IMG/VR virus record: IMGVR_UViG_3300002026_001699
Span: 8,159-72,158 of that record
Strand: one strand, 5' to 3'
Length of the DNA: 64,000 nt
DNA from: a virus
Lineage: Duplodnaviria > Caudoviricetes
Made by a program: the position numbers and the translations under genes
Shown here: positions 8,627 through 48,455 of the stretch, in pieces
Layout: each line of letters starts with the position of its first letter
How positions within the stretch are numbered: position 1 is the stretch's first letter
Notes under the pieces: model-generated
Seen by the model: only the letters and a program-made list of their open reading frames with translations
What the model was told of the DNA's origin: nothing
Database searches by the model: none

Positions 8627-10927
8627 TTATACTCCTTTAATTAAGCAATCCCCAATTTGAAGTTTTGAAGCTTCAATCCAAATTGCATTAATTATATTTT
8701 TTTCTCGTCCTTTAGGAATAACTAAAATTTTATGGTCTTTTGTACACTCTATAGAATCACCATTTTCAAGATTTACTTGAGATATTTTTTCATCAACATC
8801 ATAAATAAATTTGTTTACTACTTTATGTTTTTTACCATAAGCAGTTATAACTTCTTGATTAACTTCTATATCTTGAATATTCTTAAATGACCCATCAGAA
8901 AGTTTTACTTTTGAATTAGGAATGAAACATCCACGCCCTGCACCTACTGATGTTTCACCAAAAGTCTCTTTAGTCCATCCTATAATATCTTCCATGATCA
9001 AGAAATAATCAGTATATCCTTTTTTTACAATAACATCTAATTCAAACTTAACCCTATCAAGATATTCTTTATTGTTTTCTAATCCTCTTTCTTTTAACCC
9101 TTTCATAACTTTATCAACAATAACTTTTTTACCATTATCATAAAGTTTTGGGAGTTTGGCACTTTTATCTAACTCATATTCTTGAACACTATCAACAAGA
9201 GAAATTACAGTATGAATACCTTTCCAAAAAACCTCTTCTGTAAAGACGTCAGACTTATGCCACATTTCCCAAGCATCATGCAATTCTGATACACTTTTGT
9301 AATAAAACTCTTTGCCTTTAATAGTCCAAATTTTACCATCTGTATCTTCTTCAAGTTGTTTAAATGTTTTATCCTGATCAGAAAGCATTTGTAACTCTTG
9401 AATGCGTGATTCTGCTTTGGTGAGATAGTGAGCATCATTAGTAATAACCCATGGAATATTTAATTCCAGAGCAATCTTAATTAACTCTTCATTAATAATT
9501 TTTTGTGGTTCCCAATCAATAGCCATTAATTCAATATAATAATCTTTTCCAAATACACCATGCCACCACTTGATAACTTCTCTAGCCCTCTTTGGAGCCT
9601 CTGCAATTGCCTGTTTATCACTCTCTTCTATAAAATCAGATACATATTTGATATAATCTTCTTCTTCAAATTTGTTTTCTTGGTGAGAATAAAAATATTC
9701 AAAATCATATTGATCTAGATATTCATTTTCTGCAAGTTTATCATCATCCTTTGTTCTAAAAGATGACTTCATTGCCTTTACTTTATTTTCAATGAGGACT
9801 TTTTTATCATTAGCTCTTTTATCACTTTCAAGATAAACTCTCTCCAAGAGAATTCTATTTTGTTCTCCAGTTCCACAACCAGATAAAATAATCAATCCAT
9901 CACTATGATCTTTTATATATTCAGGATCACAAATTGGATTTTTGTAAAATCCATTTACCCAAGCATCATTATGAATTTTAACAATATTTTTAAAACCATT
10001 TAGATTTTTAGCAAACATTGTTATATGTCTTGTTTCTTTTGAGGCTATTTTTCTAATGGCTTTATTTTCAGGAGTATCATCTTTAAGAGCGTCTCTTAAT
10101 TTACCAGCCTGTCTATTTACATAAGCTTCCATTCCAAGAATTGGCTTTAAGCCATTTTCTTTTGCGCCATTATAAATAGAAATCCAATCACAAATATTTC
10201 CATGGTTAGATGTTGCTATTGCAGATTTTTGTTTTTCAACATGCCATTTTATTCTTGTATCAGGAGTTCCAATACCATCTTTAAATGAGAGGGTATTATG
10301 AACATGAAGATGAACATATTTCCAGTCAATCTTTATTTTTTCAACTTCTTGTCTTACACTTTCTAGTTCTTGGACATTGTTAAAAGAAAATATCTTTACA
10401 GTATATACAAGTTGCTTGGCATTAATTCTCAGAGGAAGATCATATGAATTAAGACCTTTAGATATTGCTATTCTAAAAGTTTTTTCAAGGAGAGATTTAG
10501 TATAATCACCAAGTGCAAAAATAATTTCTGGTTGAACAACTAGCAACTCTTTAAAGAGGAATCTTTTTATGTGTAATTTACCATCTTTAAAAAGTGGATC
10601 TTCAGTTGATGGATCTTTTGGATATTTTATACCATATGTTAAATATAAATCTTTTCTATTAAGATCTAGCGATGTGCAAATTTCTTGGACTGATTTTGAT
10701 AAATCAGGGTCTGTATAAAATTTGTCAATGTCAAATGGGGATGGGTATGGACCTAATATCATAAATGGTGATATTCTACCTTCAGGAAGAGATCTGTTTC
10801 CAGGCTGAAGAGCAAACTCACACAACTCAATATCTTTTGCTTTTTGAATATCATCAAAAATTTTGTCTAGTGTAATATCATTTTTTAATAGATTAGCTGT
10901 GATTTGTGATTCTTCATTAAATGGCAT
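8627..10927 (-). CDS. dnaE: DnaE fragment 1: UDG-like N-domain + PHP domain + IntN1 (100 aa)
   Basis: HLHVHNTLSFKDG, SNHGN, GMEAY, TNDAHY; DYFLIMEDII; GAGRG|CFIPNS; TKDH. Confidence 0.92.
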   Translation of the reverse strand: MPFNEESQITANLLKNDITLDKIFDDIQKAKDIELCEFALQPGNRSLPEGRISPFMILGPYPSPFDIDKFYTDPDLSKSVQEICTSLDLNRKDLYLTYGIKYPKDPSTEDPLFKDGKLHIKRFLFKELLVVQPEIIFALGDYTKSLLEKTFRIAISKGLNSYDLPLRINAKQLVYTVKIFSFNNVQELESVRQEVEKIKIDWKYVHLHVHNTLSFKDGIGTPDTRIKWHVEKQKSAIATSNHGNICDWISIYNGAKENGLKPILGMEAYVNRQAGKLRDALKDDTPENKAIRKIASKETRHITMFAKNLNGFKNIVKIHNDAWVNGFYKNPICDPEYIKDHSDGLIILSGCGTGEQNRILLERVYLESDKRANDKKVLIENKVKAMKSSFRTKDDDKLAENEYLDQYDFEYFYSHQENKFEEEDYIKYVSDFIEESDKQAIAEAPKRAREVIKWWHGVFGKDYYIELMAIDWEPQKIINEELIKIALELNIPWVITNDAHYLTKAESRIQELQMLSDQDKTFKQLEEDTDGKIWTIKGKEFYYKSVSELHDAWEMWHKSDVFTEEVFWKGIHTVISLVDSVQEYELDKSAKLPKLYDNGKKVIVDKVMKGLKERGLENNKEYLDRVKFELDVIVKKGYTDYFLIMEDIIGWTKETFGETSVGAGRGCFIPNSKVKLSDGSFKNIQDIEVNQEVITAYGKKHKVVNKFIYDVDEKISQVNLENGDSIECTKDHKILVIPKGREKNIINAIWIEASKLQIGDCLIKGV

Positions 10928-10991: not shown

Positions 10992-11390
10992 CTAAAATGT
11001 AATATATATTTTTTTGATTTGACCAAATTTCTTTATTGACAAATAACCTATTTTTCCAGTTATCAATAACTTTTCTTGAATTTGAAAAGCCATAGAATCA
11101 CAGAATGCTAGAAATTGAACTAGCACAATATTTCCTGCAATATAAAAATCATCATCATGGAATTCACCAACTTCATGATTATTACTGCTTCTTTTAGATA
11201 ATTTAATATCATCTAAATTTTTAAAAACTCTATACATAATAGAGAGTAATAGTTTTATATCTCTAGATTTATTATTTTGAGCAATTTTTTCATATATACT
11301 TGCAAATTTAATTTGCTTTGATTTTAAAGGTGGAAGATCTTCTAACAAGAATTTCCACTTTTCAATTAATTCACTATCTTGTTCTGTCAT
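10992..11390 (-). CDS. Hypothetical protein
   Basis: 132 aa ORF in the - strand gene run. Confidence 0.55.
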   Translation of the reverse strand: MTEQDSELIEKWKFLLEDLPPLKSKQIKFASIYEKIAQNNKSRDIKLLLSIMYRVFKNLDDIKLSKRSSNNHEVGEFHDDDFYIAGNIVLVQFLAFCDSMAFQIQEKLLITGKIGYLSIKKFGQIKKIYITF

Positions 11391-12216
11391 TTATTAAATC
11401 CCTTGTTATCTCTAATGCGGCAGCAAAAGGATATTTACAACTCCACTTATCTAAATTTAATTCTTTAACATCTTCTTTTATTATAGAAGATTCACACTCT
11501 TTTATATCATATACTAAATTCAACTCCATAGAATTTGCCATATAATCTATAGCATCTTCTAAAGATCTTGCATTATCATCCATAATTTGAATTGATTTAT
11601 TTTTATATTTTTCTATATCAGATAAAATCATATCAACACCATCTAGAAAATCATCTATAAAAGTATATTTTCTTTTATCTCCAAGATTAGCATAAATTAC
11701 TGCCATATCAGATCTTCCAACTGAAGTCATTAATAATTGACTAATTGATCCATGAAAATCTTCAGGTCCAAATAATTCATCTGTTATTATTTCAATAACA
11801 TCAATCCCCATATTTTTAAACATTAAAGAAATTGCATCTTGTGTATAATTAAACATATTATTAGGATGATTATTATATTTAATAAAAACAATTGGAATGT
11901 CTAATTTTTTAGCATGTTGAGCTATGTAATAACTCCCCTCAATATTATTTCTAACCATCCAATGTGATTTATCATCTTCAGGAACTATCAAGGTAGCGGT
12001 GTGAATTATACATTCAACGCCTGATCTTTCTAATAGATTTTCAAGAGTAGGATCAAAAATATCTATTTCGGAGTGATGATCAAAAGAAAACTTTTTCTGT
12101 CTCCAATAATCATACATATCATTAAGATGAGAATTCTCAACAATATGTTTGTGTGATAAATGCCTAACAAAGGCTCTAGAAACGAAACCATTCTCGCCTG
12201 TCATCCAAATTTTCAT
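11374..12216 (-). CDS. NAD-dependent epimerase/dehydratase (SDR)-like, degenerate
   Basis: MKIWMTGENGFVS Rossmann start, IIHTA, NNIEGS, ELFGP, YTFIDD; YxxxK appears replaced by FNYTQ. Confidence 0.7.
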   Translation of the reverse strand: MKIWMTGENGFVSRAFVRHLSHKHIVENSHLNDMYDYWRQKKFSFDHHSEIDIFDPTLENLLERSGVECIIHTATLIVPEDDKSHWMVRNNIEGSYYIAQHAKKLDIPIVFIKYNNHPNNMFNYTQDAISLMFKNMGIDVIEIITDELFGPEDFHGSISQLLMTSVGRSDMAVIYANLGDKRKYTFIDDFLDGVDMILSDIEKYKNKSIQIMDDNARSLEDAIDYMANSMELNLVYDIKECESSIIKEDVKELNLDKWSCKYPFAAALEITRDLINDRTR

Positions 12217-12821
12217 TGTTCCTCCAAAAGTATTTTTTTATATTTTTCTATAAAAGGTCTTCTAAGTTCATAATAAAATTCTTTTCCAGTTTGCGGGCTC
12301 ATGATTATCAATTTCATTAGGTGTAATGTAAATTCTTCTAATGTAAGATATGCCTTTATTCCATTATATCTAAAACCAGTAGCTTGTTCTATTTGTTCAT
12401 CTTGTCTTTTATTCTTTAAACACGTTTTTCTATAATTAGATACTGTTCTCTGTAATACAATCCTTGCCTTGCCAGGATCTGAAATATCTCCACCTGGAAA
12501 GAAGCAATAAAAATGTCCATTATATCCTTCAATTGCCTTATGCTTTAGAAAAGTTCCTCTAACAACATTAAATTTTAAAGGAACCCATTCTGTCTCAATA
12601 ATAACATCACCTGAAGAAACTCTTGATTTAATATTTCTTATTTTAATTCTATCTAACTCTTGTTGAGATGGAGGAAAAACATCATCTAGTTGTGAAAAGT
12701 TAGCTATATAATTCTCCAAGATATTATGCTTTATTTCAAAATTAAACATATCTTGTAAATAAGACAAAACAACCTTTTCAGCCTCTAAACCATACTCTTG
12801 ATAGTTCTCCATGCACATCAC
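12213..12821 (-). CDS. Hypothetical protein, possibly PD-(D/E)xK fold
   Basis: GLEAEKVV...SSGDVII pattern only. Confidence 0.35.
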   Translation of the reverse strand: MMCMENYQEYGLEAEKVVLSYLQDMFNFEIKHNILENYIANFSQLDDVFPPSQQELDRIKIRNIKSRVSSGDVIIETEWVPLKFNVVRGTFLKHKAIEGYNGHFYCFFPGGDISDPGKARIVLQRTVSNYRKTCLKNKRQDEQIEQATGFRYNGIKAYLTLEEFTLHLMKLIIMSPQTGKEFYYELRRPFIEKYKKILLEEQ

Positions 12822-12829
12822 CTCTTATT

Positions 12830-12870
12830 AAACTATGCTTAAATAGAGACAAATTTGTACAATTTAAAAA
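12830..12870 (-). promoter_or_regulatory. Putative phage promoter TGTACAAATT-N13-GCATAGTTT
   Basis: Same bipartite spacing recurs at 35841-35870; the GCATA element precedes many starts. Confidence 0.5.
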
Positions 12871-13160
12871 GAAAATTGAATATCTATTCTGTCTGATAAA
12901 GCAGACATATTATGTGTTATTTGAATATTGAATGCTGTTGAAAAATTTTCCATTTTTAACACACTGTTTACTATTATAGTTACGTCATATTTTTCTTCAA
13001 GATACTTTAAACAATATATTAGTTTATGTTTTAAATCTTCATTTATTAATTCAAATTGATTTTTTTCTATAAAATCAGTGACTACTTGTTTTACTTCTTT
13101 TTCAACACTATTTCCTAAAAGTAAATCTTTTGCTATTTCAGCTGTTGTTCGCATTTCCAT
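12864..13160 (-). CDS. Hypothetical protein (AKxLLLG family)
   Basis: EIAKDLLLG N-terminal motif shared with 17809, 18036 and 20472. Confidence 0.5.
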   Translation of the reverse strand: MEMRTTAEIAKDLLLGNSVEKEVKQVVTDFIEKNQFELINEDLKHKLIYCLKYLEEKYDVTIIVNSVLKMENFSTAFNIQITHNMSALSDRIDIQFSF

Positions 13161-14019
13161 AAAGCCACCTTAAAATTCTATATCCTGAATCATAGCCTAT
13201 TGATAGAGGGTGCTCAATATTTGTAATAATATTAATTAAACATTTTTCAGGCTCACCTTTTTCATTAATTAAATTTGTTGCCAAGTCTGGTGTGCTTGCT
13301 GGAGTAAATTCTTCTTTCATCATTTTTTCTATCTGCTCAAAATTCTTTTCATAAATATGGAGGGAGTGAGCAATATGTGTATATGTTCCTATCTCTAACT
13401 CTGGATAAACTACTTTAAGGTGATTATACATTTGTTGTTGAAGCATAGTAAAAAATGGATAGTCAAATGTCAATCCAAAAAAGATATCATTACTTCTCAT
13501 ATCAACTGTAAAGTTTAATTTATTATTTCGTATTTGAAAATTACCTATTAATGTGCAAACAAAATCTTTTACACCATTATATTGATGAGCGGGCCGGTTA
13601 AAATGCATAATGGCTTGTCTGGAATCTTTATCTTTAACAAGAGAATCATATGCCCATTGATATTGACTAAATCCATTTTCTGCATCCTTTAAATTAAATA
13701 AAAGATTTCCATAAGCAGAATTACATGTTCCATCTTCATTTGAAATATTTTTCCAAAATGAAGAAAAATTTGATATGAAACTTAGATCATTTCTCCCTGA
13801 AAAATACCATAGCAATTCACCAGCCAAATATTTCAATGGAACATCTCTTGCTTTATTAAGAAAGAGATTAGATGTTGGATCTTCATTGATTAAAATAGCA
13901 TCACTTATTTCTTTAATCTTTTGTCCTCTTGGGGCAGACTCATACTCAGGATTTGTCATCAATTCATTGCAAATATTTTTATATAGTTCAGCAAAATTCT
14001 TTCCCTTAATAACTCTCAT
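13138..14019 (-). CDS. Thymidylate-synthase-fold dCMP hydroxymethylase (T4 gp42-like)
   Basis: SRQA, DFVCT catalytic Cys, MRSNDIFFGLTFDY with Asp at the dCMP-specificity position, SLHIYE. Confidence 0.8.
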   Translation of the reverse strand: MRVIKGKNFAELYKNICNELMTNPEYESAPRGQKIKEISDAILINEDPTSNLFLNKARDVPLKYLAGELLWYFSGRNDLSFISNFSSFWKNISNEDGTCNSAYGNLLFNLKDAENGFSQYQWAYDSLVKDKDSRQAIMHFNRPAHQYNGVKDFVCTLIGNFQIRNNKLNFTVDMRSNDIFFGLTFDYPFFTMLQQQMYNHLKVVYPELEIGTYTHIAHSLHIYEKNFEQIEKMMKEEFTPASTPDLATNLINEKGEPEKCLINIITNIEHPLSIGYDSGYRILRWLYGNANNS

Positions 14020-14823
14020 TTACATCTCCTTTAAATTATCAATCAATGTATTAAAATAATCAACATTCTGTCCAGTAGATCCAAAAATTTCTATATCTAT
14101 TTTTTTATCATCATAAATTGGTTTTATAAAATATTCATATAGTGTAATTATATCAGCAAATAATTCATATTGAATATCAGATGATCTAAAAACAAAAACA
14201 ACCTTGTCATTTAAATAATGTATCATACTTAGACAAGATACATCTAATTTTCCTTTTTCAGATTCTTCGTATTCACCTATTGAATTGGCTATTCTTACAA
14301 CAGCTTTTCTTGAAGATCTATTATTAGAAAATATATTTCTAACAGACTGTAATACTTGTTGATAAGTTAAAGAATTTCTTTGTTCAACTGAATGAGTATA
14401 TATGCTTCCATCTAAAGATGGTAATAAGTCAAAAAACCTTAAAGATCCTCTCTCTTCAAGAAAAGGTTTAAAGTCATCTTTTGTAATATCTTTATTTTTA
14501 AATTTTTCTAATTTTAATAATATATAAGGATCTTTTATTTTATTAATATCATATATAAAATCTTTAATTGTAAAAAGATAGGAATCATTTTCAAATAATG
14601 GTTTTTTATTTATAGTTATTTTCATTCTTTCAATCCTTATTTTTACAATTTCTTGGACATCTTCTCTTTGTGCTTTTATAACTTTAGCAATACAATCACC
14701 ACAAAGATCCCCAATTAATTTAATAGTCAAAACATTCTTTTCAAAAGATACAAACTCACATATACCCCTTGATTCAAACATTTCTTTTAAATCTTGATTT
14801 ATATAGTCTTTAAGATTTTTCAT
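14020..14823 (-). CDS. NifU-C-like N-domain fused to a divergent TS-like domain
   Basis: LTIKLIGDLCGDC; SSRKAV...SCLSMIH...FRSSDI...FAD; internal AAGGA-ATG (MKITIN). Confidence 0.55.
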   Translation of the reverse strand: MKNLKDYINQDLKEMFESRGICEFVSFEKNVLTIKLIGDLCGDCIAKVIKAQREDVQEIVKIRIERMKITINKKPLFENDSYLFTIKDFIYDINKIKDPYILLKLEKFKNKDITKDDFKPFLEERGSLRFFDLLPSLDGSIYTHSVEQRNSLTYQQVLQSVRNIFSNNRSSRKAVVRIANSIGEYEESEKGKLDVSCLSMIHYLNDKVVFVFRSSDIQYELFADIITLYEYFIKPIYDDKKIDIEIFGSTGQNVDYFNTLIDNLKEM

Positions 14824-15433
14824 TCATTTTATTTATGACATCATTTATCATATTCATTAAATAATCTTGATCTTTTAAAATATCAATCTTAACAAGCTTT
14901 GATTTATTAACTAAAACACCATCTGTTATAATTGACATTAAATTATATTCATTCTCCTGAGTAAATTCAATATTTTCTTGAGTATAAATATCTTTTCTTG
15001 TTATTTCTTTGATTGGTTTAAAAAACAAAATTGTATCATATAAATTATTTACATGATCAAGCACTGTGTCAAACAGTTTTGATAAAAATTTATGATATCT
15101 TATTATGTCATCTGTTCCAAGACTTGATTTATCCATATAAAAAGTATAATAAAAATAACTATCAACAAGAGATCTATCTATTAAAATCAATTTATTATTA
15201 AATCTTTCGTTGATACTTTTTTCTGCATTTATTTTTTCACCAATAATATCTAACTCTAAGTCAAGATATTTTGATGCACATTTTCTAATTTCATCAATAT
15301 TACCAATATTAAGATCTCTTATTACTTCATCTAACAAAACAACATCATTTGGATATAAATCCTTTATTGTTTTCATAAAAGTTGTTTTACCTGAATGAGA
15401 AGCACCTGAACATGCTATAATTAAATTATTCAT
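14810..15433 (-). CDS. P-loop nucleotide kinase (dNMP kinase-like)
   Basis: SGASHSGKTT Walker A; LIDRSLVDSY. Confidence 0.75.
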   Translation of the reverse strand: MNNLIIACSGASHSGKTTFMKTIKDLYPNDVVLLDEVIRDLNIGNIDEIRKCASKYLDLELDIIGEKINAEKSINERFNNKLILIDRSLVDSYFYYTFYMDKSSLGTDDIIRYHKFLSKLFDTVLDHVNNLYDTILFFKPIKEITRKDIYTQENIEFTQENEYNLMSIITDGVLVNKSKLVKIDILKDQDYLMNMINDVINKMNEKS

Positions 15434-15450
15434 ATTATCCCTTTTGAAAT

Positions 15451-15477
15451 ATGCCCCAGATTGTTAGTCTGGGGCAT
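15451..15477 (-). terminator. GC-rich hairpin, probable terminator
   Basis: ATGCCCCAGA-7nt-TCTGGGGCAT perfect 10-bp stem just after the acidic ORF. Confidence 0.65.
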
Positions 15478-15481
15478 TAAT

Positions 15482-15652
15482 TTAAACTTCTATATTGTCA
15501 TCATCAAAATCATCATCAGGACCATATCCATCTTCATCATCTTCATCATTAGCATAATCATCGTCATCATCATACTCTGTCCCTATATCATCATCTTCAA
15601 AATTATCTTCTACATCATCTTCAAAGTCATCATCTTCGAACTCATCATCCAT
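15482..15652 (-). CDS. 56-aa hyper-acidic peptide (missed by the ORF track)
   Basis: AGGAG RBS; MDDEFEDDDFEDDVEDNFEDDDIGTEYDDDDDYANDEDDEDGYGPDDDFDDDNIEV; 35 D/E, no K/R/H. Confidence 0.8.
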   Translation of the reverse strand: MDDEFEDDDFEDDVEDNFEDDDIGTEYDDDDDYANDEDDEDGYGPDDDFDDDNIEV

Positions 15653-15665
15653 AAACTCCTCCTAT

Positions 15666-17399
15666 TTATTCCTCATATGTCCCTATCAAAAGATAAGGCT
15701 TCTTGAGACCTAACTCATTAGCTCTATCAAGCTGATACTTAAAGTCATCAATTGCATGTGCTGCTGAAAAGACAATTGGCTTTCCATGAACATTGTAAGA
15801 TGTATTAATCAAGGCTTTTGTAGTTCCTTCAACTTTCTTGAGAATCAAAGAAACAGTTGAATTATCATCTTCAACAACCTGAGGACGCCCTGAATAAAGA
15901 TCTTCATTTGGATATTTATGCATGATTCCTGAATAAAGTTCACAATATTGAATTGTATAATCATATGTAAGAATCATAAACCCATCTGATCCAATTGTCT
16001 TTTCATACTGTTCTTTATCAAAGAAATAATCAAGATTTTTTCTTAACATAATTGGAGCCATTGGCATTACAGTATTTCTCTTATTATAAGTATTAATCAA
16101 CTCTACATTTTCCTTAAATGGAATTGCATAAGTAGTTGTATGGCACAGAGCTCTAGGCCCAAACTCCATACTTCCTAATACAACTTGCGGAATTTGATTA
16201 TCCTTTATTAAAGAAGCAACTCTGTCTGCCATTTCCTGCTTTGTATTATAAATTTCAACATTTTCAGGGAGAGTCTTAATATCTATATTACTAACCTCTG
16301 TCTTTAGATCTCTATGACCCCAGAAAAGATTTGAGAAATCGAAATCACCAATGTTATTTATATAATGACCAATTGCCGCTCCTTGATCTCCGGCTAGAGG
16401 CATAACACAAAATGAATTGCACTCTTTTGCAAGTCTATTGTTTAATTTAACATTATAGAAAATACCACCATTTACAATAAGCGCTCCATTAGAATGTTTC
16501 CTTACAAAATGTGTTGCCACACCCTCAAGAACAGTTTGGATAAAATTACCAATAACAGTTCTAAGATTAAACTTATCATCATCTCTTGTAAATACAAGGG
16601 AGTTTACAAGCTTATCAAGTCTTGCATAGTGATCCTTCTTTACTTTATTAAGAGCATCAATATCAATATAATAAGGATCAGATACTCTTTTTGAAATTGA
16701 TGATTCAAGCCCATAAATCATTTCATCAATAAAACTATTTGCGGCAGTCTGAAGAATTTCAAAATTCTTATCATTAAGAACTTCATGAATATGAGATTCA
16801 TAACCAAGGAATTTATATTCATCCTGGTTTTCTTTCATACCACTATAAGATGTTGCATACTGATAAAACATTCCAAGAGAGTTTTCATAACCATATGATC
16901 TATGGAATAATTCAATATTTCTAAGACCAATGTTATTATAAGTAAGTCTATAAAGAGACATTACTTCTTGCTTATTTCCAAAACCATCTGCTACCATAAT
17001 CATGGCATCATAATTTTCTCCACCGTGGAATTCATAGAAACCAGTGGCTGCATAAGCATGTGCATCATGGTGAGTAAAGTCTTCACCAAGAGATACTACT
17101 TTAAAACCATAATCATTTATAAGAGAATTGATATAATCCTGATTCCAATACTTGGAATGAATTTTCTCATTCTTGTTTGTTTGAAACTCAAAATCATCAA
17201 ACCAATGAGAAACAAAAACCACATTCTCTTCATCTTTTGAAGGTTTTGCAAAATTAATGCATTTAATAGCACTTTCTAATGGAAAGATTGAAGATGATTT
17301 TAGCCTCTCATGTCTTTCTTCCTCATATCCAGCAATTACTTTTCCATCTCTTACAGCAATAGCAGAAGAGTTATGTCCAAGTGTCAATAATAGTTCCAT
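15666..17399 (-). CDS. Carbamoyltransferase (NodU/CmcH/TobZ family)
   Basis: GHNSS, YEEER, HHDAHA, DGFG, NGGIFYNVKLN, GDQGAAIG, EFGPRAL, INTSYNVHGKPIV. Confidence 0.92.
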   Translation of the reverse strand: MELLLTLGHNSSAIAVRDGKVIAGYEEERHERLKSSSIFPLESAIKCINFAKPSKDEENVVFVSHWFDDFEFQTNKNEKIHSKYWNQDYINSLINDYGFKVVSLGEDFTHHDAHAYAATGFYEFHGGENYDAMIMVADGFGNKQEVMSLYRLTYNNIGLRNIELFHRSYGYENSLGMFYQYATSYSGMKENQDEYKFLGYESHIHEVLNDKNFEILQTAANSFIDEMIYGLESSISKRVSDPYYIDIDALNKVKKDHYARLDKLVNSLVFTRDDDKFNLRTVIGNFIQTVLEGVATHFVRKHSNGALIVNGGIFYNVKLNNRLAKECNSFCVMPLAGDQGAAIGHYINNIGDFDFSNLFWGHRDLKTEVSNIDIKTLPENVEIYNTKQEMADRVASLIKDNQIPQVVLGSMEFGPRALCHTTTYAIPFKENVELINTYNKRNTVMPMAPIMLRKNLDYFFDKEQYEKTIGSDGFMILTYDYTIQYCELYSGIMHKYPNEDLYSGRPQVVEDDNSTVSLILKKVEGTTKALINTSYNVHGKPIVFSAAHAIDDFKYQLDRANELGLKKPYLLIGTYEE

Positions 17400-18036: not shown

Positions 18037-18293
18037 TATTCATCTCCATCATAATATATACATGTATTTTCTTTTGGCAAATCAAGTCCTTTTGATCTAA
18101 ATAATCTCCATTCGGCTGAATTGATGCTTTTAATTTCAAAATCTTTTTTAGCTCTTACTGTGGATTTACAGCTTCTATGATTGTTGATTTTAACATTATA
18201 ATAAAAACATCTATCACATGTAAATCCAAGTAAAAGATTTTTGGCTATCTCATTTTCCTGTTGATCCAAATCCACCTTCACCTCTAATAGCAT
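18036..18293 (-). CDS. Small Cys-rich protein (AKxLLLG-CxxC family)
   Basis: AKNLLLGFTCDRC...PKENTCIYY; evident paralog of 17809. Confidence 0.6.
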   Translation of the reverse strand: MLLEVKVDLDQQENEIAKNLLLGFTCDRCFYYNVKINNHRSCKSTVRAKKDFEIKSINSAEWRLFRSKGLDLPKENTCIYYDGDE

Positions 18294-18759
18294 CAGGCTT
18301 CATCCAATCATAAAGATCCTCTTCATCACAAAGTGTAAGATCACAAGATAGAATTGGAACCATAACCATCTGAGCAAGTTTCATACCTTCAACAACTGAG
18401 AAAGGATCATTTCCAACATTATGAAGATCAACATGAACTTCACCTGAATAAAAAGTATCAATAACCTGAGCACCAATGAGCATATCACTTTTTGAAGCAA
18501 CTCCACTCTTGTTTAAGAAAAGACCCATATATCCATATGGTATTTCTACTTTTACACCAGAAGGAATTACAGCATTACATCCAGGAGGAATAGCCATTCC
18601 CTTGTCTGTAAAAACAACATGAGCATTTGCTTCCTTGGATGTAAAATCTTTGATAAATTGTTCATCCATTTTTGGGCACATAAAATCTATACCTGCATCA
18701 GTTGCATGACCTCGAGATGGCATTTTAACATTTCTAATAGTTGCATACTTTAATAACAT
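18250..18759 (-). CDS. dut: dUTP pyrophosphatase
   Basis: DAGIDF, NKSGVA, VIDTFYSGEV, KLAQMV, RGEGGFGSTG. Confidence 0.95.
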   Translation of the reverse strand: MLLKYATIRNVKMPSRGHATDAGIDFMCPKMDEQFIKDFTSKEANAHVVFTDKGMAIPPGCNAVIPSGVKVEIPYGYMGLFLNKSGVASKSDMLIGAQVIDTFYSGEVHVDLHNVGNDPFSVVEGMKLAQMVMVPILSCDLTLCDEEDLYDWMKPDAIRGEGGFGSTGK

Positions 18760-18776: not shown

Positions 18777-19055
18777 TTATTCTTCTATGAGATAAAAGAA
18801 ATCTTTATCACCTATACTTTTAATAGTTATTTTAACAATTTTATTTTCAAAATCTTGATCAATATCATAAAAAGAAATATCTTTATTAAACTCATAAGCT
18901 TTTAATAATTTATGAGCATTTTCTATAATCTCTTTTCCATGATCATTAAACTCAAATTCTTTGAATAAAAACTCAACTTGTTTTTGTATTTCTTTCTTTT
19001 TTAATTTATCCATTCTTATTCCTCTGAAGATATTTTTTCTAAAACTATTCCACAT
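18777..19055 (-). CDS. Hypothetical protein (likely starts at MDKLKK)
   Basis: ORF track; ATG overlapping the end of the upstream gene. Confidence 0.45.
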   Translation of the reverse strand: MWNSFRKNIFRGIRMDKLKKKEIQKQVEFLFKEFEFNDHGKEIIENAHKLLKAYEFNKDISFYDIDQDFENKIVKITIKSIGDKDFFYLIEE

Positions 19056-20434
19056 GAATTTAATAAAAATTTACTATTAGCACTTGATTTATCATAATCA
19101 TGAACAAAATAAATTTTGTTTGGTTTTAATGCCGCTAATATTTTTGAACAATGAATACATGGTTGCATTGATGTATATATATCAATATCTTCAAGCTGAA
19201 TCCCGTTTTTTGCAGATTCACATATTAAAGATTGTTCTGCATGAATTTCATGTTCATTAGACCAATTATGATGTAGTTCTCTCCATTCATCGGTTAAAAC
19301 CCATTCATTATATGGTATAGATATACCTAATGAAATATGCAAATTATGAAAATAATCATCACAATTTATATAACCAGATGGTGTTCCATTTATTCCAGTC
19401 GCAATAATTCTTCCATTTTTTACCGCTATAGCAGCAACTTTTTTACTTTCACAATGTGATTCTTTTGCATAAATATCCACTATTTGAGAAAATAACTTTT
19501 TATTTTTTTCTTCATTTTTTTTATAACTAACATATTCATCAAAGAAACCATAATCAATATCTCTTGAAGAGAAGAAATCAAGTGAATTGTTATTTAAACA
19601 ATTTTCTATAAAACAAATAATATCATCAGTAGTAGAAAAATCATTTTCCCATATAATAATATATTTTATATCAATATTTCTTTTAACCTCATAAAGACAG
19701 TTATAAGCTTTTTTTATTTCAAACATATAATCTTTTTTGCTAAATTGTTTAAACTTAGTAAAATCTTTATGCCAATAAATACCATTATATTCTAATATAT
19801 ATTTTTTATCTATAAAAGCATCATGTAAAAAATTTTTTTTATTATATAATTGTTTTAATTCTTCATTGATAACTGGAGAATAAAAATCTTCAACAAGATG
19901 ATTATTTTTTAATATTTTTTTTATCTCTAATTCAACTAGAGATTCATTGTTTCTATTTACTAAAGATGATGCTAAAGCTCCTGGTTTTCTTGTTTCACAA
20001 AACTCCATGTTGTATGTAAAATCCTTTCTTTTTTCTTTTATAGATAATTGTCCTTTTTTAAAAAAATCTTTTAAAAGTCCTTTTGATTCTTCAAGATTCC
20101 AACCTCTTTTAATCCAATATTCTATATTATGGTTTTTAAAAGATTTAATTTCATTAAATTCATCTATAAACAATAAAAATATATTTATATCCGTAGAAAT
20201 AGCCTTTTGTTTTAAATCATATATAATATCATAATTAAAATTATCATCCTTCAATATAGAATCAAAACAACTTATATCAGAATCTGAAAAAAATAATCTT
20301 ATTTTTTTAAAATATCTTAATTCATGAAATTCGTTTGCTTTTTCTATATCTAATCCTTTAGAAAAAAAAGATTCCCAGTTTAACCACTTAGATTTAATAT
20401 TTTTATCAATTATTAAAAACTCTTCTTTATTCAT
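19016..20434 (-). CDS. dCMP deaminase fused C-terminal to an endonuclease-like domain
   Basis: C-terminal GINGTPSG, HAEQ, PCIHC; N-terminal ILEYNGIYWH (Vsr-like) and YWIKRGW. Confidence 0.85.
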   Translation of the reverse strand: MNKEEFLIIDKNIKSKWLNWESFFSKGLDIEKANEFHELRYFKKIRLFFSDSDISCFDSILKDDNFNYDIIYDLKQKAISTDINIFLLFIDEFNEIKSFKNHNIEYWIKRGWNLEESKGLLKDFFKKGQLSIKEKRKDFTYNMEFCETRKPGALASSLVNRNNESLVELEIKKILKNNHLVEDFYSPVINEELKQLYNKKNFLHDAFIDKKYILEYNGIYWHKDFTKFKQFSKKDYMFEIKKAYNCLYEVKRNIDIKYIIIWENDFSTTDDIICFIENCLNNNSLDFFSSRDIDYGFFDEYVSYKKNEEKNKKLFSQIVDIYAKESHCESKKVAAIAVKNGRIIATGINGTPSGYINCDDYFHNLHISLGISIPYNEWVLTDEWRELHHNWSNEHEIHAEQSLICESAKNGIQLEDIDIYTSMQPCIHCSKILAALKPNKIYFVHDYDKSSANSKFLLNSCGIVLEKISSEE

Positions 20435-20471: not shown

Positions 20472-20741
20472 TTACATCCATATATCTAAAGTATGCTTAT
20501 AATTCTCACAAACGTGAGATTCAGGATCACTAACCACAACATTTTGATTCTCAAAATCAAAGAAACAAATACTTTCTAAAACAAGTTTTAGAGGTATATA
20601 CTTTTTTAAATCTATTTCATATACCTCATTTGGATTTTTTAATTCTTTTTTTAGAAACTTACAATTATTGCAATTGTTCCCAAGTAATAACATTTTGGCT
20701 TTTTCATTTGGTTCCATATATATTATCTTTATGATTACCAA
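20472..20741 (-). CDS. Small Cys-rich protein (AKxLLLG-CxxC family)
   Basis: AKMLLLGNNCNNC...HVCENY. Confidence 0.55.
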   Translation of the reverse strand: MVIIKIIYMEPNEKAKMLLLGNNCNNCKFLKKELKNPNEVYEIDLKKYIPLKLVLESICFFDFENQNVVVSDPESHVCENYKHTLDIWM

Positions 20742-21552
20742 ACCAACACTGTTCTCTTAATGGGCAGTTTTCTGCTTTTTTAAGATTTTCACTGTTTTCA
20801 TTTAATATTTCTTGGAGTGTTTTTTCTTTTAAGGATCCTAAAGATTCAACTATTCTGTGTGATTGACATAATCTAACAGTAGCATCTGGCATAATTGTTA
20901 TTTCATTTTGAATAGATGTGCATTGGTAGTCTTCTTTTGTTATCCATCTCAATAAATATTCAAAATTCTTTTGTGTCAAAACACCTTGTTCATTCAATGT
21001 TTTTAAATTTTCTCTACTTATTGCAGGCCATGTAAATTGTTCATTATTATAATAATATCCTTTTTGATATATATTAAAATAAGGCTGCTTCATTTTAGGA
21101 AATATTGTTAAGAGTTTCTTGATAAACAAAGCATCTACATCAATAAATGGAAGATTATATTGACTCATTGTATATGACAATCTTTGAATAGTATCAGCAG
21201 ATTTTAATGATGTTAATAAATATATAAGATCAGAAGTAAATGGTTTTCTTCCTCTTATATTATCGTTCATAACTCCATCCCAATTCATTGATATATATGG
21301 AATCGAGCGTGGATAGTTTATTATTTTAGAAACATCTTCAAGGTGAGTTGTAAGAATATAATTTTTTTTATCTTTAAAAATATCTAACACTTGATTAAAA
21401 TCAGGTCTTAGTGTAGGCTCTCCTCTAAGAATAAACAAATCATCTTCATTATACAATTTTTGAATGATATTTCTATCTAATTGTTGATTAGAAGTAAGAG
21501 GTTTTTTATTGTAATTTACGAAATAATCATTCAAAAAAAGTGATATTTTCAT
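20704..21552 (-). CDS. Radical-SAM-like protein lacking CxxxCxxC, with SPASM/twitch-like C-terminus
   Basis: RGEPTL; CTSIQNEITIMPDATVRLC...LGSL; CPLREQC. Confidence 0.6.
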   Translation of the reverse strand: MKISLFLNDYFVNYNKKPLTSNQQLDRNIIQKLYNEDDLFILRGEPTLRPDFNQVLDIFKDKKNYILTTHLEDVSKIINYPRSIPYISMNWDGVMNDNIRGRKPFTSDLIYLLTSLKSADTIQRLSYTMSQYNLPFIDVDALFIKKLLTIFPKMKQPYFNIYQKGYYYNNEQFTWPAISRENLKTLNEQGVLTQKNFEYLLRWITKEDYQCTSIQNEITIMPDATVRLCQSHRIVESLGSLKEKTLQEILNENSENLKKAENCPLREQCWFGNHKDNIYGTK

Positions 21553-23057: not shown

Positions 23058-23249
23058 TTATCTCCTAGGTATTTTATTCTCAACATTCTTAACCATTTGT
23101 CTTAATTTTCTTTCCAAGATTGACATGTTATTATTTGTAATAATATTTTTTCTAAATAAGTCATTAAACTTTTTTTCTAAATTAATATAGTTTAGTTTTA
23201 ATTCCTCAAATTCTTTTTTTGAAACTCCTTCATCTAGTTTTTGATTCAT
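23058..23249 (-). CDS. Small coiled-coil hypothetical protein (MNQKLDEG...)
   Basis: ATGA overlap with the glf stop; the longer track ORF overlaps glf. Confidence 0.5.
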   Translation of the reverse strand: MNQKLDEGVSKKEFEELKLNYINLEKKFNDLFRKNIITNNNMSILERKLRQMVKNVENKIPRR

Positions 23250-24349
23250 TTTTCTCTCCTGTTGTGTTTTATAGTTGCTGATATTTTTTGTGCCTGATCC
23301 ATTATGCCATCCATTTCCATGAAAGACCATGAACCATTTCTACCAGCAAAAATAATATTCTCATATTGCTTATCTTTGTGTGAGATTATTCCAGATGTAT
23401 GTTGATTGTAAATCTTGAAATTATTTTTTGTGGGAATTGGAAAGATTGCTTGATCACTATCATCAATAAATGTTTTTACAATAATGTTCTTTTCATAATC
23501 ATTATTATAATTATCTTTTTTAAAAAACTTTCCAAATTGTGTCATATAAACAAATGGAGTGTGATTAGGATATATCATTGTATCAGGAGAACCTGATTTA
23601 TACTTTGTTGAATCAATATCAAAAGAACAGTGAGAATATATTTTATTTTTTAGATTTAAAAAAGAGTTGATATCTATTGTAGATATAATAATGTCATTAG
23701 AAGAGAATGATGATAAATCAACTTTTGAATTTAATCTAACATCTACATTTTTAGTAAAATCATCAAACAGTTTATTCCATCCGGTATTTATTGGGAATAA
23801 TATATATTTTTCATTATAATGAGAAAAATTAGAATGAACATCTCTCATATTGCCTTTAAACCAATCAACTATATCCAAATTAGATGTTCCAAAAAGTCGC
23901 TTAAAATAATTTTCATAAAATACATTATAAACAGTGTTACCATAAAAATTTGTAATAAGTTGTTCAATATTTTGAGCATTTTCCCCATTAGATTTTTCAA
24001 GATCTAAAAGAATAGATTCTTTCCAATGCCATGGCATTGTATCAATGGATGCTTTATTAAATGGATGATTATAATATCTAAAATCAAATAGAGGGTCCAT
24101 GGCAACAACATAATCAATAGGCTGTAAAGAAACAGATTTTGAAAATAAATCAACTATCCAATCTTTATTAGTATGAAGAACGGAAGGAACTTGTTGCCAT
24201 GGAATATTTTCTATACTTTGTCTTGTGCGTATGAGACCACCTAACTCTGATGTTTTTTCATAAAGAATAACATTAAAATCTTTAGATAAAAAATAAGCAA
24301 AAGCACAACCAGATATGCCTCCGCCTATTATGTGAATGGTCTCACTCAT
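23246..24349 (-). CDS. glf: UDP-galactopyranose mutase-like flavoprotein
   Basis: IIGGGISG...EK...GGLIRT; PINTGWNKLF; FAGRNGSWSFMEMD. Confidence 0.75.
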   Translation of the reverse strand: MSETIHIIGGGISGCAFAYFLSKDFNVILYEKTSELGGLIRTRQSIENIPWQQVPSVLHTNKDWIVDLFSKSVSLQPIDYVVAMDPLFDFRYYNHPFNKASIDTMPWHWKESILLDLEKSNGENAQNIEQLITNFYGNTVYNVFYENYFKRLFGTSNLDIVDWFKGNMRDVHSNFSHYNEKYILFPINTGWNKLFDDFTKNVDVRLNSKVDLSSFSSNDIIISTIDINSFLNLKNKIYSHCSFDIDSTKYKSGSPDTMIYPNHTPFVYMTQFGKFFKKDNYNNDYEKNIIVKTFIDDSDQAIFPIPTKNNFKIYNQHTSGIISHKDKQYENIIFAGRNGSWSFMEMDGIMDQAQKISATIKHNRREK

Positions 24350-29470: not shown

Positions 29471-29968
29471 TTAATTGTAGATAAAGTTATAATATTCTTG
29501 TTCTGTGTCAAATATTATTTTTTTATTTGAATTGTAACATTCTTCGTCTCTTTGTTTAAATGGTATTTCTTTTTCTATAGGTAGGAGTCCAAAATGTGTC
29601 ATATAGAAGCCTTTATCTTCTGCCATTTTCCATACTTCATCACATCTAGAATCTGGTCCTTTTATTAAAAAAATGGATGAAGGGATAAATTGCTTTTTAA
29701 CACAATGAACAGAAAATTTTAATTGTTCAATAACAAAAGTGTATATAGTAGCATGTTTATATCCTATATATTTTATTTTATTTCTAATTAATTTATGTTT
29801 AACTTTATCAATATCACATACTATATCTATATCACCAACAGTTTCACATCCTCTTGAATATGATCCACCTATAATATAATCTGGGAATATTTCTTGAATG
29901 AATTCTTGATATTTTTCTAATATTTCTTGAGCTTTTTCTCTAGTTAAGCGGACATATTTTGCATTCAT
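29471..29968 (-). CDS. Minimal DNA polymerase X family nucleotidyltransferase
   Basis: GGSYSRGCETVGDIDIV; KG; C-terminal FDTEQEYY; start trimmed to MNAKY. Confidence 0.75.
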   Translation of the reverse strand: MNAKYVRLTREKAQEILEKYQEFIQEIFPDYIIGGSYSRGCETVGDIDIVCDIDKVKHKLIRNKIKYIGYKHATIYTFVIEQLKFSVHCVKKQFIPSSIFLIKGPDSRCDEVWKMAEDKGFYMTHFGLLPIEKEIPFKQRDEECYNSNKKIIFDTEQEYYNFIYN

Positions 29969-30803
29969 CTCCACCCCTATTCTGCATTTTAAACATAATA
30001 TTTTCATCTAATTTAAAATCTTTATTAAAGATATTACCTAAATATCCTGATTTAGCTGCAAGACAACATGAATACATATCACCATTATATAAAACATATG
30101 GAGTTTTTGCTGTATTACATTTTTTATATTTTCTGATTTTTAAATCTTGGTTTAAATATCTTGAATAATATTGAGAATCCTCTGACGTAGGATATAATTC
30201 ATCAATTAATTTTTGTTTTAATTCTAAATCATCAATTTCATTGATACCAAAATCGAGACCAGAAATCCAATAATATTTTTCTAATGCAATACTTTTATAC
30301 ATAAAATCATCTATTTCATTTTCATTGTATTTTGATATAATCATCTTTAAATGATAATTGATTTTATATTCATCAAGTTTTTGAATATTATAAATAACAT
30401 TATCAATTTTTCTTCCAGTTAATTTTAAATAAGTTTCAGGGTTAAATGAATGAAGGGAGATGTATATTTCACTTATTGTATCTTTAATAAGTTTAAAATC
30501 TAAATTAGGCATGTTAAGATTAGTTGTGAGGGTAGTTGTTATTTTTCTTTTTTTTATTTCTGACAGAATGTCATTAATTCTAGGATGAATAAGAGTTTCA
30601 CCTCTTCCAACAATCCTCAAGAATGTTGGTTGGTAAATATCTAATATTTTGATAAAGTTATCAAATTCAATATGTTGTTTTGGGTGCAGATCAAATCTTT
30701 GTCCAAAACACATTTTACAATCATTATTACATATTGAAGATATTTCTATTTGTAATGGTTTTCCATCATTATAAAAATAAAGAGAATTTATCTTGTTTTT
30801 CAT
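29940..30803 (-). CDS. Radical SAM protein with SPASM/twitch domain
   Basis: ICNNDCKMC (CxxxCxxC), GRGETL, TTNL, NGDMYSCC...LGNI, CKIC. Confidence 0.88.
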   Translation of the reverse strand: MKNKINSLYFYNDGKPLQIEISSICNNDCKMCFGQRFDLHPKQHIEFDNFIKILDIYQPTFLRIVGRGETLIHPRINDILSEIKKRKITTTLTTNLNMPNLDFKLIKDTISEIYISLHSFNPETYLKLTGRKIDNVIYNIQKLDEYKINYHLKMIISKYNENEIDDFMYKSIALEKYYWISGLDFGINEIDDLELKQKLIDELYPTSEDSQYYSRYLNQDLKIRKYKKCNTAKTPYVLYNGDMYSCCLAAKSGYLGNIFNKDFKLDENIMFKMQNRGGDECKICPLN

Positions 30804-35918: not shown

Positions 35919-36959
35919 TTAAACGTCTAAAACTCTGTCTTCTTTATTTTCTAGTTTTTTACTTGTTTTGACTGCCATTTTTTCATTGTATTTTGTTGCT
36001 GAAAGAGTAGCTTTGTCTTTAAGTTTAGCAAAAACCTTATCAACAGAAATGCCAGAAGCAATAGTTATATATTGTGGAAGATTCTTATCTTCAACTCTTA
36101 AAACACCAAAAATAGTACGAGCACTTTTAATACTATTATTAATCTTCATAGTAACTTGCATAAGTTTATCACTTTCAATCTGTGTTGTTTCTTTATTATG
36201 TTTTACATTAATAAGCTTTGTAATAAGAACATTTGCCGATTCATTAAACTTTCCATAAGAAAATTTTGGTATTTTTGGTTTTCCAGTTTCTTGAAAATCC
36301 TCTTCAAGATTATCATAAGAAACGTTAATAAATCCTCCTGAAAAGGCAACAGAAGAATGGTCTTCTTCATCAATTGCAAATGGTGTAAATGAGTTATTAT
36401 CATGCAAGTATGGAAGATCTGTTATATGTCTAACCTTTTCTACAATTCTATTATTAATTTTTTCAAATGTCATTGTTCCAATTTCTTTACCAACATCATC
36501 ATTAGCTGCTACATAAACACTCATATTATTTGAGAATTCAGCAACACGTGAAAGAAGACGAGTTGCATTAGATGTTGCAGGAATAGATTCTGCTAGGAAT
36601 GGTGTTGCTACAACAAGAAGAATCCTATTATTCTGTTTCATAAGAATATTTAAGAATGTTATAACAGAAGATGATCCTGATCCTCCTCCACCAGATACAA
36701 AGTATACAACATCTTGATCTTCAACTGTTGCAAGATATTTTTCAAGAATTTCTCTGTTTTCAGCCCAAATTTTCAATCCCTTAGAATAAGACTGACCTGC
36801 TCCACCATTTACAATAAGATGATCATTACCAAGTTTAATTCCGCCTGAATCTCTGTGATCAGTATTAAATGTTAAAAGTACATCATTTTTCTGTGCGTAA
36901 AGTGAAGCTAGTCTTGTTCCAACCTGACCAACTCCAATTACTGTTTTATATTTTGCCAT
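35919..36959 (-). CDS. Tubulin/FtsZ-family GTPase (PhuZ/TubZ-like)
   Basis: IGVGQVG, FNTD, GGAGQ, SGGGGSGS signature. Confidence 0.85.
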   Translation of the reverse strand: MAKYKTVIGVGQVGTRLASLYAQKNDVLLTFNTDHRDSGGIKLGNDHLIVNGGAGQSYSKGLKIWAENREILEKYLATVEDQDVVYFVSGGGGSGSSSVITFLNILMKQNNRILLVVATPFLAESIPATSNATRLLSRVAEFSNNMSVYVAANDDVGKEIGTMTFEKINNRIVEKVRHITDLPYLHDNNSFTPFAIDEEDHSSVAFSGGFINVSYDNLEEDFQETGKPKIPKFSYGKFNESANVLITKLINVKHNKETTQIESDKLMQVTMKINNSIKSARTIFGVLRVEDKNLPQYITIASGISVDKVFAKLKDKATLSATKYNEKMAVKTSKKLENKEDRVLDV

Positions 36960-46660: not shown

Positions 46661-47116
46661 ATGGATTTTAAATATGAACAAATAATATCACTATTTACTA
46701 ATCCTCTTCAAACTATGGCTAAAGGCTTATGGATGGATGGAACAGAAGGTGAAGGAGAGCATAAATTTTGGTATAATAGTGGTCAATTATATCAACATTG
46801 TTTTTATAAAGGTAGAGAAAGAGAAGGTGAATATAAGAAATGGTGGGGAAATGGTCAATTATCTATTCATACTTTTTATAAAAATGGTAATAGAGATGGT
46901 GAATATAAAAGTTGGCATAGTAATGGTAAATCGCTTGTTCATGCTTTTTTTAAAGATGGTAAAGAAGAAGGTGAACTTAAAAGATGGTTTGATAATGGTC
47001 AATTAGAATATCATTGTTTTTATAAAAATGCTGAAAGACATGGCGTTCGTAAAGAATGGGATGAGAAAGGTAATCTTATTAAATCAACAACTTATAAAAA
47101 TGGTAGAGAAATATGA
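46661..47116 (+). CDS. MORN-variant/YwqK-type repeat protein, paralog 1
   Basis: 24-aa units NGQLxxHxFYKNGxxDGEYKxW. Confidence 0.85.
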   Translation: MDFKYEQIISLFTNPLQTMAKGLWMDGTEGEGEHKFWYNSGQLYQHCFYKGREREGEYKKWWGNGQLSIHTFYKNGNRDGEYKSWHSNGKSLVHAFFKDGKEEGELKRWFDNGQLEYHCFYKNAERHGVRKEWDEKGNLIKSTTYKNGREI

Positions 47117-48158: not shown

Positions 48159-48453
48159 TAATGCATGAACAAATAATATCATTATTTATTTCTCCAGAAG
48201 AAACATTATATAATGGACTTTGGATGAGTGGTAAAAGAGAAGGTGAATATAAAAAATGGTATAGAAATGGTCAGCAACGTGAAAGTTGTTTTTATAAAGA
48301 TGAAGAAAAAATGGTCCATTTAAACAATGGTATACTAACGGTCAATTGTATATTCTTTGTTATTATAGATATAATGAATTAAATGGTGAATATAAAGAAT
48401 GGGATGATAAAGGTAAATTGATGGATTCAGGAACTTTTAAGGATGGTAAATAA
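48155..48453 (+). pseudogene. MORN/YwqK-type paralog 4, frameshifted at the A6 run 48306-48311
   Basis: One extra A restores ...EEKNGPFKQWYTNGQL...FKDGK to TAA 48451-48453. Confidence 0.8.
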
Positions 48454-48455
48454 GT

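Follow-up and report, generated by a model that had tools for sequence, protein, structure and literature searches.

A predicted cytosine-modification cassette with a carbamoyltransferase and a divergent second thymidylate synthase-fold gene in a low-GC phage contig

Gene content and linkage of the cassette

The DNA considered here is a 64-kb window (the whole stretch that was analysed, 64,000 nt, with a GC content of ~27%) drawn from the 72,158 bp phage contig held in IMG/VR as IMGVR_UViG_3300002026_001699, for which CheckV estimates a completeness of 48%. The subject is a cassette of five co-oriented minus-strand genes at 13138-17399, separated by small overlaps or gaps, which encodes two proteins with the thymidylate synthase (TS) fold, termed TS1 and TS2, a kinase (KIN) and a carbamoyltransferase (CbT). 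The order of transcription is CbT, a hyperacidic open reading frame (ORF) of 56 aa, KIN, TS2, TS1, two unknown ORFs and a divergent short-chain dehydrogenase/reductase (SDR), with genes for a dUTPase-family protein and a dCMP deaminase domain upstream of CbT. Every gene named in the initial annotation of this region, which had proposed a cluster for hypermodifying cytosine and probably making carbamoylated 5-hydroxymethylcytosine (5hmC), is present, and the identities of the genes, the patterns of their active sites and their conserved linkage are direct observations. The genes of the cassette and its two upstream companions are as follows:

13138..14019, minus strand: TS1, 293 aa; predicted dCMP 5-hydroxymethylase (5-hydroxymethyl-dCMP, or 5hm-dCMP, synthase); Pfam PF00303
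14020..14823, minus strand: TS2, 267 aa; divergent second TS-fold protein; AlphaFold model
14810..15433, minus strand: KIN, 207 aa; P-loop nucleoside/nucleotide kinase; Pfam AAA_28
15482..15652, minus strand: hyperacidic ORF, 56 aa, between CbT and KIN; translation
15666..17399, minus strand: CbT, 577 aa; predicted 5hmC O-carbamoyltransferase; Carbam_trans_N and Carbam_trans_C
18250..18759, minus strand: trimeric dUTPase-family protein, upstream of CbT; Pfam dUTPase
19016..20434, minus strand: dCMP deaminase domain protein, upstream of CbT; Pfam dCMP_cyt_deam_1

A scan for promoters and terminators gave no signal above that of shuffled sequence by which the boundaries of the operon could be set. 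The slot between carbamoyltransferase and kinase is also occupied by hyperacidic ORFs, composed mostly of Asp and Glu, in two relatives, where they are 85 aa (L001, 2921-3178) and 82 aa (L004, 7156-7404) long.

The conservation of this arrangement was studied in 80 viral loci, fetched by their carbamoyltransferase and scanned with profiles built for the purpose. A TS1-type gene is present within 8 kb in 72 of these loci, most with D169/D177 (E. coli numbering) according to a crude motif scan, and the genes of the cassette are thus clustered far beyond chance. The kinase is found in 39/80 loci and TS2 in 21/80; a further 17 have a second TS gene of the Pfam type directly after the kinase, mostly with the motif MRSSN..LLPYD (D169N, G173L, N177D). 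Hence two TS-fold genes are found in 38 of the 80 loci, or about half, and the second of them comes in two unrelated forms.

Several other features of the related loci involve the carbamoyltransferase or its neighbours. The loci with an MRSSN..LLPYD gene (L050, L056-L058, L064-L066, L068, L070-L072 and L104; compare 9456-10262 of L013, from Bacteroides phage BF503P1) also carry a D169/D177 gene of the hydroxymethylase type, and the D169N substitution is the published mark of 5-hydroxy-dCMP synthases (PMC13326640). In two distant lineages, an ATP-grasp gene (ATPgrasp_Ter) lies directly upstream of the carbamoyltransferase (L009, 4945-6219, and the Logan contig of P0204, SRR13425446); its product might supply carbamoyl phosphate or perform a further ligation step. 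A gene of the uracil-DNA glycosylase (UDG) family adjoins the carbamoyltransferase in two relatives (L001, 405-1130, and L021, 918-1643), and in the window the DnaE fragment (8627-10927) has a weak UDG-like match at its N-terminus.

Predicted functions of TS1, CbT and KIN

TS1 matches the Pfam family Thymidylat_synt (PF00303) over residues 13-249 with an E value of 7e-25. Its best PDB sequence matches are the CMP hydroxymethylase MilA (4e-21) and T4 gp42 (4e-19), with weaker matches to E. coli ThyA (2e-9) and to 9iqu, a flavin-dependent dCMP hydroxylase (3e-7). Diagnostic columns were read from an alignment of TS1 with E. coli ThyA, T4 gp42, SPO1 gp29 and 11 carbamoyltransferase-linked homologues. 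In enzymes of this fold, N177D makes dCMP the substrate (PMC8670742), and L143D/E, by allowing access to water, leads to a hydroxymethyl rather than a methyl product (PMC13326640). Within the TS1 motif MRSNDIFFGLTFDY, Asp186 aligns with Asn177 of the E. coli enzyme and Asp179 of the T4 enzyme. In E. coli numbering, the protein has E58, Y94, R126, D143, C146, T147, R166, S167, D169, G173, D177, H207 and Y209; in its own numbering the informative positions are D152 (L143), C155 in FVCTL (C146), T156 (H147), D178 (D169) and D186 (N177), of which C155 is the catalytic cysteine (E. coli C146, T4 C148). At all of the diagnostic positions checked, namely 143, 146, 147, 169 and 177, TS1 is identical to T4 gp42, which agrees with its initial description as a gp42-like homologue with Asp, and it departs both from ThyA (L143, H147, N177) and from SPO1 gp29, a dUMP hydroxymethylase (N177). 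From this gp42-type pattern, the predicted activity of TS1 is the folate-dependent hydroxymethylation of dCMP. The same Asp177 is found in all 11 of the aligned TS1-type genes from CbT-bearing loci, including those of Xanthomonas phage Xp15 and Bacteroides phage BF503P1.

Two other identities were considered for this protein. A canonical ThyA is contradicted by a score of 68 bits, against the 327-bit cut-off of the NCBIfam ThyA equivalog, and by Asp at position 177. The Asn169 of 5-hydroxy-dCMP synthases is not borne by TS1, in which Asp169 is retained as D178. At their C-termini, carbamoyltransferase-linked TS1 proteins have in common a tail that finishes with an aromatic motif (RWLYG, KWL or RFIYG), encoded in the window at 13138-13290 (minus strand) and found in the same region in L001, L004, L006, L008, L014 and L018; the tail is not present in T4 gp42 or ThyA, and may be a docking element.

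CbT contains both of the domains of the NodU/TobZ type, Carbam_trans_N and Carbam_trans_C, as expected of the carbamoyltransferase named in the initial annotation. Its sequence relatives in the PDB are NovN, GdmN and TobZ, and it can be aligned with GdmN and TobZ over its full length. The positions of TobZ W408, G421 and R423 have been found to separate the enzymes of modified contigs from others (Yang et al. 2021, eLife, PMC8670742). When mapped to TobZ numbers 408/421/423 on the basis of the W-to-G spacing of 13 in GdmN, the CbT residues are V406/C419/T421 (V...MEFGPRALCHTTT). The validated enzyme that was purified by Yang et al., which converts 5-hydroxymethyldeoxycytidine (5hmdC) to 5-carbamoyloxymethyldeoxycytidine (5cmdC), has I...MEFGPRALCNTTT, i.e. 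I/C/T (PMC8670742), and GdmN, NovN and 7xb6 have W...EFGPRALG(H/N)RS, i.e. W/G/R. More than 1,500 CbT homologues are detected at E<=1e-10, and 103 of the 120 closest have the x/C/T signature. Four residues of CbT, H110, H114, D138 and D338, are invariant across 40 homologues and presumably match the iron ligands of TobZ (the Kae1/TobZ-type metal site of HxxxH, D and D). Taken together, the sequence features point to CbT being a 5hmC O-carbamoyltransferase, and this is its predicted function.

Copies of CbT with 38-40% identity are found in cultured phages of Bacteroides fragilis (BF503P1 and BF486P2) and Acinetobacter (Effie and HHU4), as well as in Xanthomonas phage Xp15. Beside each lie one or two TS homologues with Asp177; in the Bacteroides phages, the carbamoyltransferase also adjoins a kinase of the KIN family. 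No report of DNA modification in these cultured phages was found in the literature searched.

The P-loop kinase of the initial annotation is KIN, which matches Pfam AAA_28 (3e-8) and phrog_2107, annotated as 'thymidylate kinase', and in which the Walker A motif SGxxxSGKTT and a DRS motif are invariant. Its ESM Atlas model resembles clusters of deoxynucleoside and thymidylate kinases with TM scores of 0.70-0.71. Among cultured phages, tblastn matches are confined to Bacteroides phages, in which the gene directly follows the carbamoyltransferase, and KIN is in this sense specific to the cassette; no T4-like phage was matched at E 1e-3, and the sought similarity to T4 gp1 was thus not found. Deoxynucleoside monophosphate (dNMP) kinases are required in assays of 5-hydroxycytosine (5hoC) formation (PMC13326640). 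By analogy with these enzymes and with T4 gp1, KIN most likely phosphorylates a modified dCMP, either 5hm-dCMP or its carbamoylated form, 5cm-dCMP.

Both of the nucleotide-metabolism genes expected nearby, dut and a dCMP deaminase, were recovered by Pfam. The dUTPase-family protein has matches to Pfam dUTPase (1e-15), TIGR00576 (2.5e-25) and dUTPases in the PDB, and its gene, which adjoins the TS genes in L004, L007, L008 and L013, is a conserved companion of the cassette. In the deaminase, the catalytic domain (Pfam dCMP_cyt_deam_1, 2e-16; phrog_174) is restricted to residues ~305-471, and the N-terminal 300 aa (window 19535-20434, minus strand) have no Pfam match at E<=1; the homologues in relatives are only 172-187 aa in length.

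TS2, a divergent family of TS-fold proteins

TS2 could not be placed by conventional sequence comparison. It has no match in Pfam (including none to PF00303 at E 0.01), PHROG or NCBIfam, nor to PDB sequences whether searched alone or through the profile of its family, and BLASTP detects no similarity between TS1 and TS2. A tblastn search of 50,697 phage genomes likewise found no match; hence a TS2-family gene is found in no cultured phage genome, including those with CbT copies. That TS2 is nevertheless TS-like, as first supposed, is evident from an AlphaFold model computed with 11 homologues, which adopts the TS fold with a predicted local distance difference test score (pLDDT) of 85, rising above 90 across most of residues 70-267. 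The closest structural matches are T4 dCMP hydroxymethylase (dCH; Z 12.8), MilA (12.2) and AfhB (11.5), followed by ThyA structures at ~10; for T4 dCH, Foldseek gives an E value of 5e-7 with a probability of 1.0, and the VIA Z of 12.8 is for 172 residues with a root-mean-square deviation of 4.0.

The sole link to TS at the level of sequence is an hhalign comparison with a TS alignment (91.5% probability). This maps Y142 to Y94, R172/K173 to R126/R127, D194 to L143, C197 to C146, R213/S214 to R166/S167, D216 to D169, E220 to G173 and D224 to N177 of E. coli ThyA; in the N-terminal half, a global alignment was not strong enough to place Glu58 or the folate-site residues. When 1.84 billion cluster representatives were searched with a profile, a TS2 family of 98 clusters at 50% identity was defined, which contains no canonical TS and the members of which are mostly ~200 aa long, with the remainder being shorter fragments. 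Conservation of the active-site residues among 78 full-length representatives is 87-100%: Y142 at 100%, C197, R213 and D224 each at 97%, E220 at 95%, and D194 and D216 each at 90%. Three residues specific to the family, K104, E220 and Q252, reach 95-100% in the same set. In ThyA, position 173 is no more than 6 A from C5 (PMC13326640), and the Glu found there in TS2 suggests an altered use of cofactor.

Identification of TS2 as a 5-hydroxy-dCMP synthase was tried and rejected, since the D169N substitution is not found: the equivalent residue is Asp in 70 of the 78 representatives. The flavin-dependent enzymes of that class (RB69 gp48, DLP3 gp80 and AfhB of phage HY126; PMC13326640, PDB 9iqu/9iqc) and MilA do share their fold with TS2 (Z 11.5-12.8), as well as the equivalents of Cys146, Asp143 and Asp177. 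TS2 differs from the 5hoC synthases in having Asp169, where theirs is Asn, in Glu173 and in a length of only ~200 aa, and its sequence matches neither theirs nor that of MilA.

At every informative locus, TS2 lies within the carbamoyltransferase cassette, either directly after the carbamoyltransferase or with the kinase and small ORFs between them; in L021, a UDG-like gene also intervenes. It is usually found directly before TS1, and the linkage to the cassette holds even at 35% identity. The conservation of the active site together with this linkage argues that TS2 is a real, selected enzyme, predicted to bind a cytosine nucleotide. By its residues it would be a catalytically intact TS-fold enzyme of the cytosine type, belonging to the same pathway as TS1 and CbT, and it probably adds a further step beyond those already published.

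The TS2 of this phage is longer than its relatives. The TS-like domain comprises residues 67-267, and residues 1-66 (14626-14823, minus strand) form a CxxC extension with the motif GDLCGDC, which is weakly similar to NifU (E 0.012). This extension of 66 aa is unique to this phage, the other family members starting at the equivalent of Met67. Because the sequence AAGGA is positioned 8 nt upstream of Met67, two isoforms of TS2 are possible, of which one would be a short form starting at that codon.

The proposed pathway, its alternatives and their genomic setting

The interpretation favoured here, to which a probability of about 0.62 can be assigned, is that the cluster specifies a pre-replicative cytosine-replacement pathway of the type described by Yang et al. 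2021, yielding 5-carbamoyloxymethylcytosine (5cmC). TS1 would convert dCMP to 5hm-dCMP using methylene-tetrahydrofolate and the catalytic Cys155, with Asp186 selecting cytosine and Asp152 admitting water to the exocyclic methylene intermediate. KIN would then phosphorylate the modified monophosphate, a host nucleoside diphosphate kinase would complete the triphosphate, and the DnaE-type replicase of the phage would insert the modified nucleotide. CbT would O-carbamoylate the 5-hydroxymethyl group to give 5cmC, using carbamoyl phosphate and ATP via carbamoyl-AMP, with either 5hm-dCTP or single-stranded DNA as its substrate. The dUTPase and dCMP deaminase would balance the supply of dUMP and dTMP. 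The carbamoylated 5hmC first proposed for this locus agrees with the TS1 residues, with the V/C/T signature of CbT and with the pairing of the two genes across distant phages, which together make it the predicted base.

Comparison with characterised systems shows both the basis of this reading and where the locus departs from it. The 5cmdC pathway of uncultured phages (PMC8670742) likewise uses a two-domain enzyme of the NodU/TobZ type that bears an aliphatic/Cys/Thr signature, has an Asp177 TS homologue as its partner and lies near a dCMP deaminase; that paper makes no mention of a kinase or of a second TS-fold gene, whereas both lie in a conserved operon here. With the hydroxymethylcytosine pathway of T4, consisting of gp42, the dNMP kinase gp1, the dCTPase gp56, the cd deaminase and glucosyltransferases, the cluster shares the active-site pattern of gp42 and the logic of synthesising a modified nucleotide before replication with the aid of a nucleotide kinase and a deaminase. 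Unlike the T4 system, KIN has no detectable similarity to genes of T4-like genomes, no dCTPase resembling gp56 was found, and the predicted decoration is a carbamoyl group rather than glucose.

Several points weigh against a 5cmC pathway of the published type. The chemistry, the order of the steps, the extent of replacement and the modified base itself are all deduced from sequence. CbT was compared with the validated enzyme at the signature residues, and that MetaGPA enzyme, when sought by short motifs, was not among the 120 best CbT homologues. No dCTPase was found in the contig, the dUTPase-family protein being unlike T4 gp56 and both MazG and PRA-PH being absent; full replacement of cytosine is consequently not supported by a contig representing ~48% of the genome. 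Finally, neither TS2 nor KIN is needed by the published pathway, and the conservation of TS2 suggests that the pathway here may end in a product other than 5cmC. ThyX was also not found in the contig. As only about half of the genome is represented, it does not follow that ThyX, MazG, PRA-PH or glycosyltransferases of the GT1, GT2 and GT4 families are missing from the phage as a whole.

Further genes that could contribute additional chemistry lie on either side of the cassette:

11374-12216, minus strand: divergent SDR; Pfam Epimerase; possibly associated with the cassette
12213-12821 and 12864-13160, minus strand: two unknown ORFs directly downstream of TS1; likewise possibly associated with the cassette
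20704-21552: SPASM protein
23246-24349: flavoprotein resembling UDP-galactopyranose mutase (Glf-like)
29940-30803: radical SAM protein

The initial annotation had suggested that such extra enzymes add undescribed chemistry. This suggestion is supported for TS2, whose family is conserved, has its active site intact and accompanies CbT; for the others the case is weaker. The match of the window SDR to Pfam Epimerase (1e-9) covers only its N-terminal part, and it has neither a PDB sequence match nor BLAST similarity to the canonical sugar-nucleotide SDRs that are found inside the cassettes of L008 and L009, representing two distant lineages. The SDR and an ORF of 202 aa, for which an ESM Atlas search with a model of pLDDT 0.44 gave no useful match, follow TS1 only in the closely syntenic relatives L001 and L004/5. 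The linkage of SDRs to the cassette is weak and holds at the level of the superfamily only. The Glf-like protein matches E. coli UDP-galactopyranose mutase (1i8t) over its full length with an E value of 1.4e-7, and its gene, 6 kb from the cassette, is retained only in close relatives, as is the linkage of the radical SAM and SPASM proteins.

These neighbours are nonetheless the basis for one alternative, in which 5hmC is glycosylated with a sugar nucleotide made by the phage, through the SDR and the Glf-like mutase, and it is this sugar that the carbamoyltransferase modifies, in the manner of TobZ, NovN and NodU. The mutase-like flavoprotein and the divergent SDR are both present, the SDRs of L008 and L009 lie within the cassette, and in RL38J1 the glycosylation of cytosine depends on a UDP-galactopyranose mutase of the phage (PMC13326640). 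The scheme is very unlikely, as a search of the 72-kb contig for glycosyltransferases of the GT1, GT2 and GT4 families found none, the signature of CbT is of the 5hmC type instead of the W/G/R of sugar carbamoyltransferases, and the Glf-like gene is distant and kept in close relatives only. Slightly less plausible still is the reading of TS1 as a normal thymidylate synthase, as a methylase of dCMP or as a dUMP hydroxymethylase that feeds thymidine hypermodification. By tblastn, TS1 does match dUMP hydroxymethylases of cultured phages, SPO1 gp29 (~30% identity) among them, but Asp at 177 in place of the Asn of SPO1 gp29 and E. coli ThyA, Asp rather than Leu at 143 and a score far below the ThyA equivalog cut-off leave this identity with scarcely any weight.

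The alternative of most consequence, which is possible though distinctly less probable than the 5cmC pathway, is that 5cmC or 5hm-dCMP is only an intermediate, upon which TS2 performs a further step at C5 that does not use folate, such that the base in the virion is an undescribed derivative of cytosine. For example, Cys197 of TS2 could add to C6 of a 5-substituted dCMP, whereupon the carbamate would be expelled and another nucleophile captured. On this basis it may be tentatively suggested that TS2 represents a new functional class of TS-fold enzymes acting on 5-substituted dCMP, with carbamoylation being an activating rather than a final step. Consistent with such a role, the TS2 family keeps the cysteine, the equivalent of Tyr94, the phosphate-binding arginines, Asp169 and Asp177, has a near-invariant Glu at the position of Gly173, and is found in the CbT cassette at every informative locus. 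Furthermore, a second TS-fold gene occupies this slot in 38/80 viral CbT loci in two unrelated forms, and an ATP-grasp enzyme or SDRs are added at some loci. However, Xp15 and similar cultured phages carry CbT with a single TS, and the core pathway therefore does not require TS2; the scheme supposes that TS2 no longer binds folate, no enzyme that would supply the new substituent was identified in the window, and the mechanism is wholly inferential.

The genomic setting is that of a large phage. The window contains replication genes typical of large phages, including those for a primase, a helicase, a sigma factor and a DnaE-type polymerase with inteins, and a megablast search of the cluster against the 50,697 phage genomes gave no match. 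As the contigs bearing relatives of the cluster are 270-460 kb in length, the contig is probably part of a jumbo phage genome. A tubulin/FtsZ-like gene (35919-36959, minus strand) and a large subunit of ribonucleotide reductase (40084-43788, minus strand), the latter split by an intein with an HNH endonuclease, are also observed, and fit such an origin. Elsewhere in the window, 12 paralogous genes of 101-174 aa are arranged in tandem at 46661-51753 (plus strand), where GC skew is strongly positive; the pairs reported by BLAST are 42-66% identical, with repeated GEYKxW..NGxL motifs of MORN-like appearance.

The core of the pathway proposed for this locus has already been published, and the cluster is a well-supported member of it from a low-GC, probably jumbo, phage. 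What is new is the conserved TS-fold family of TS2, which is small, has its active site intact and is matched by no sequence library. Modification of cytosine allows phages to escape restriction enzymes and CRISPR, and is a source of enzymes for epigenetic sequencing. TS2 is the useful lead of the locus, as it travels with the carbamoyltransferase in a role that is unexplained by the published pathway; if it does represent a new functional class, the DNA of this group of phages would bear an undescribed cytosine derivative.

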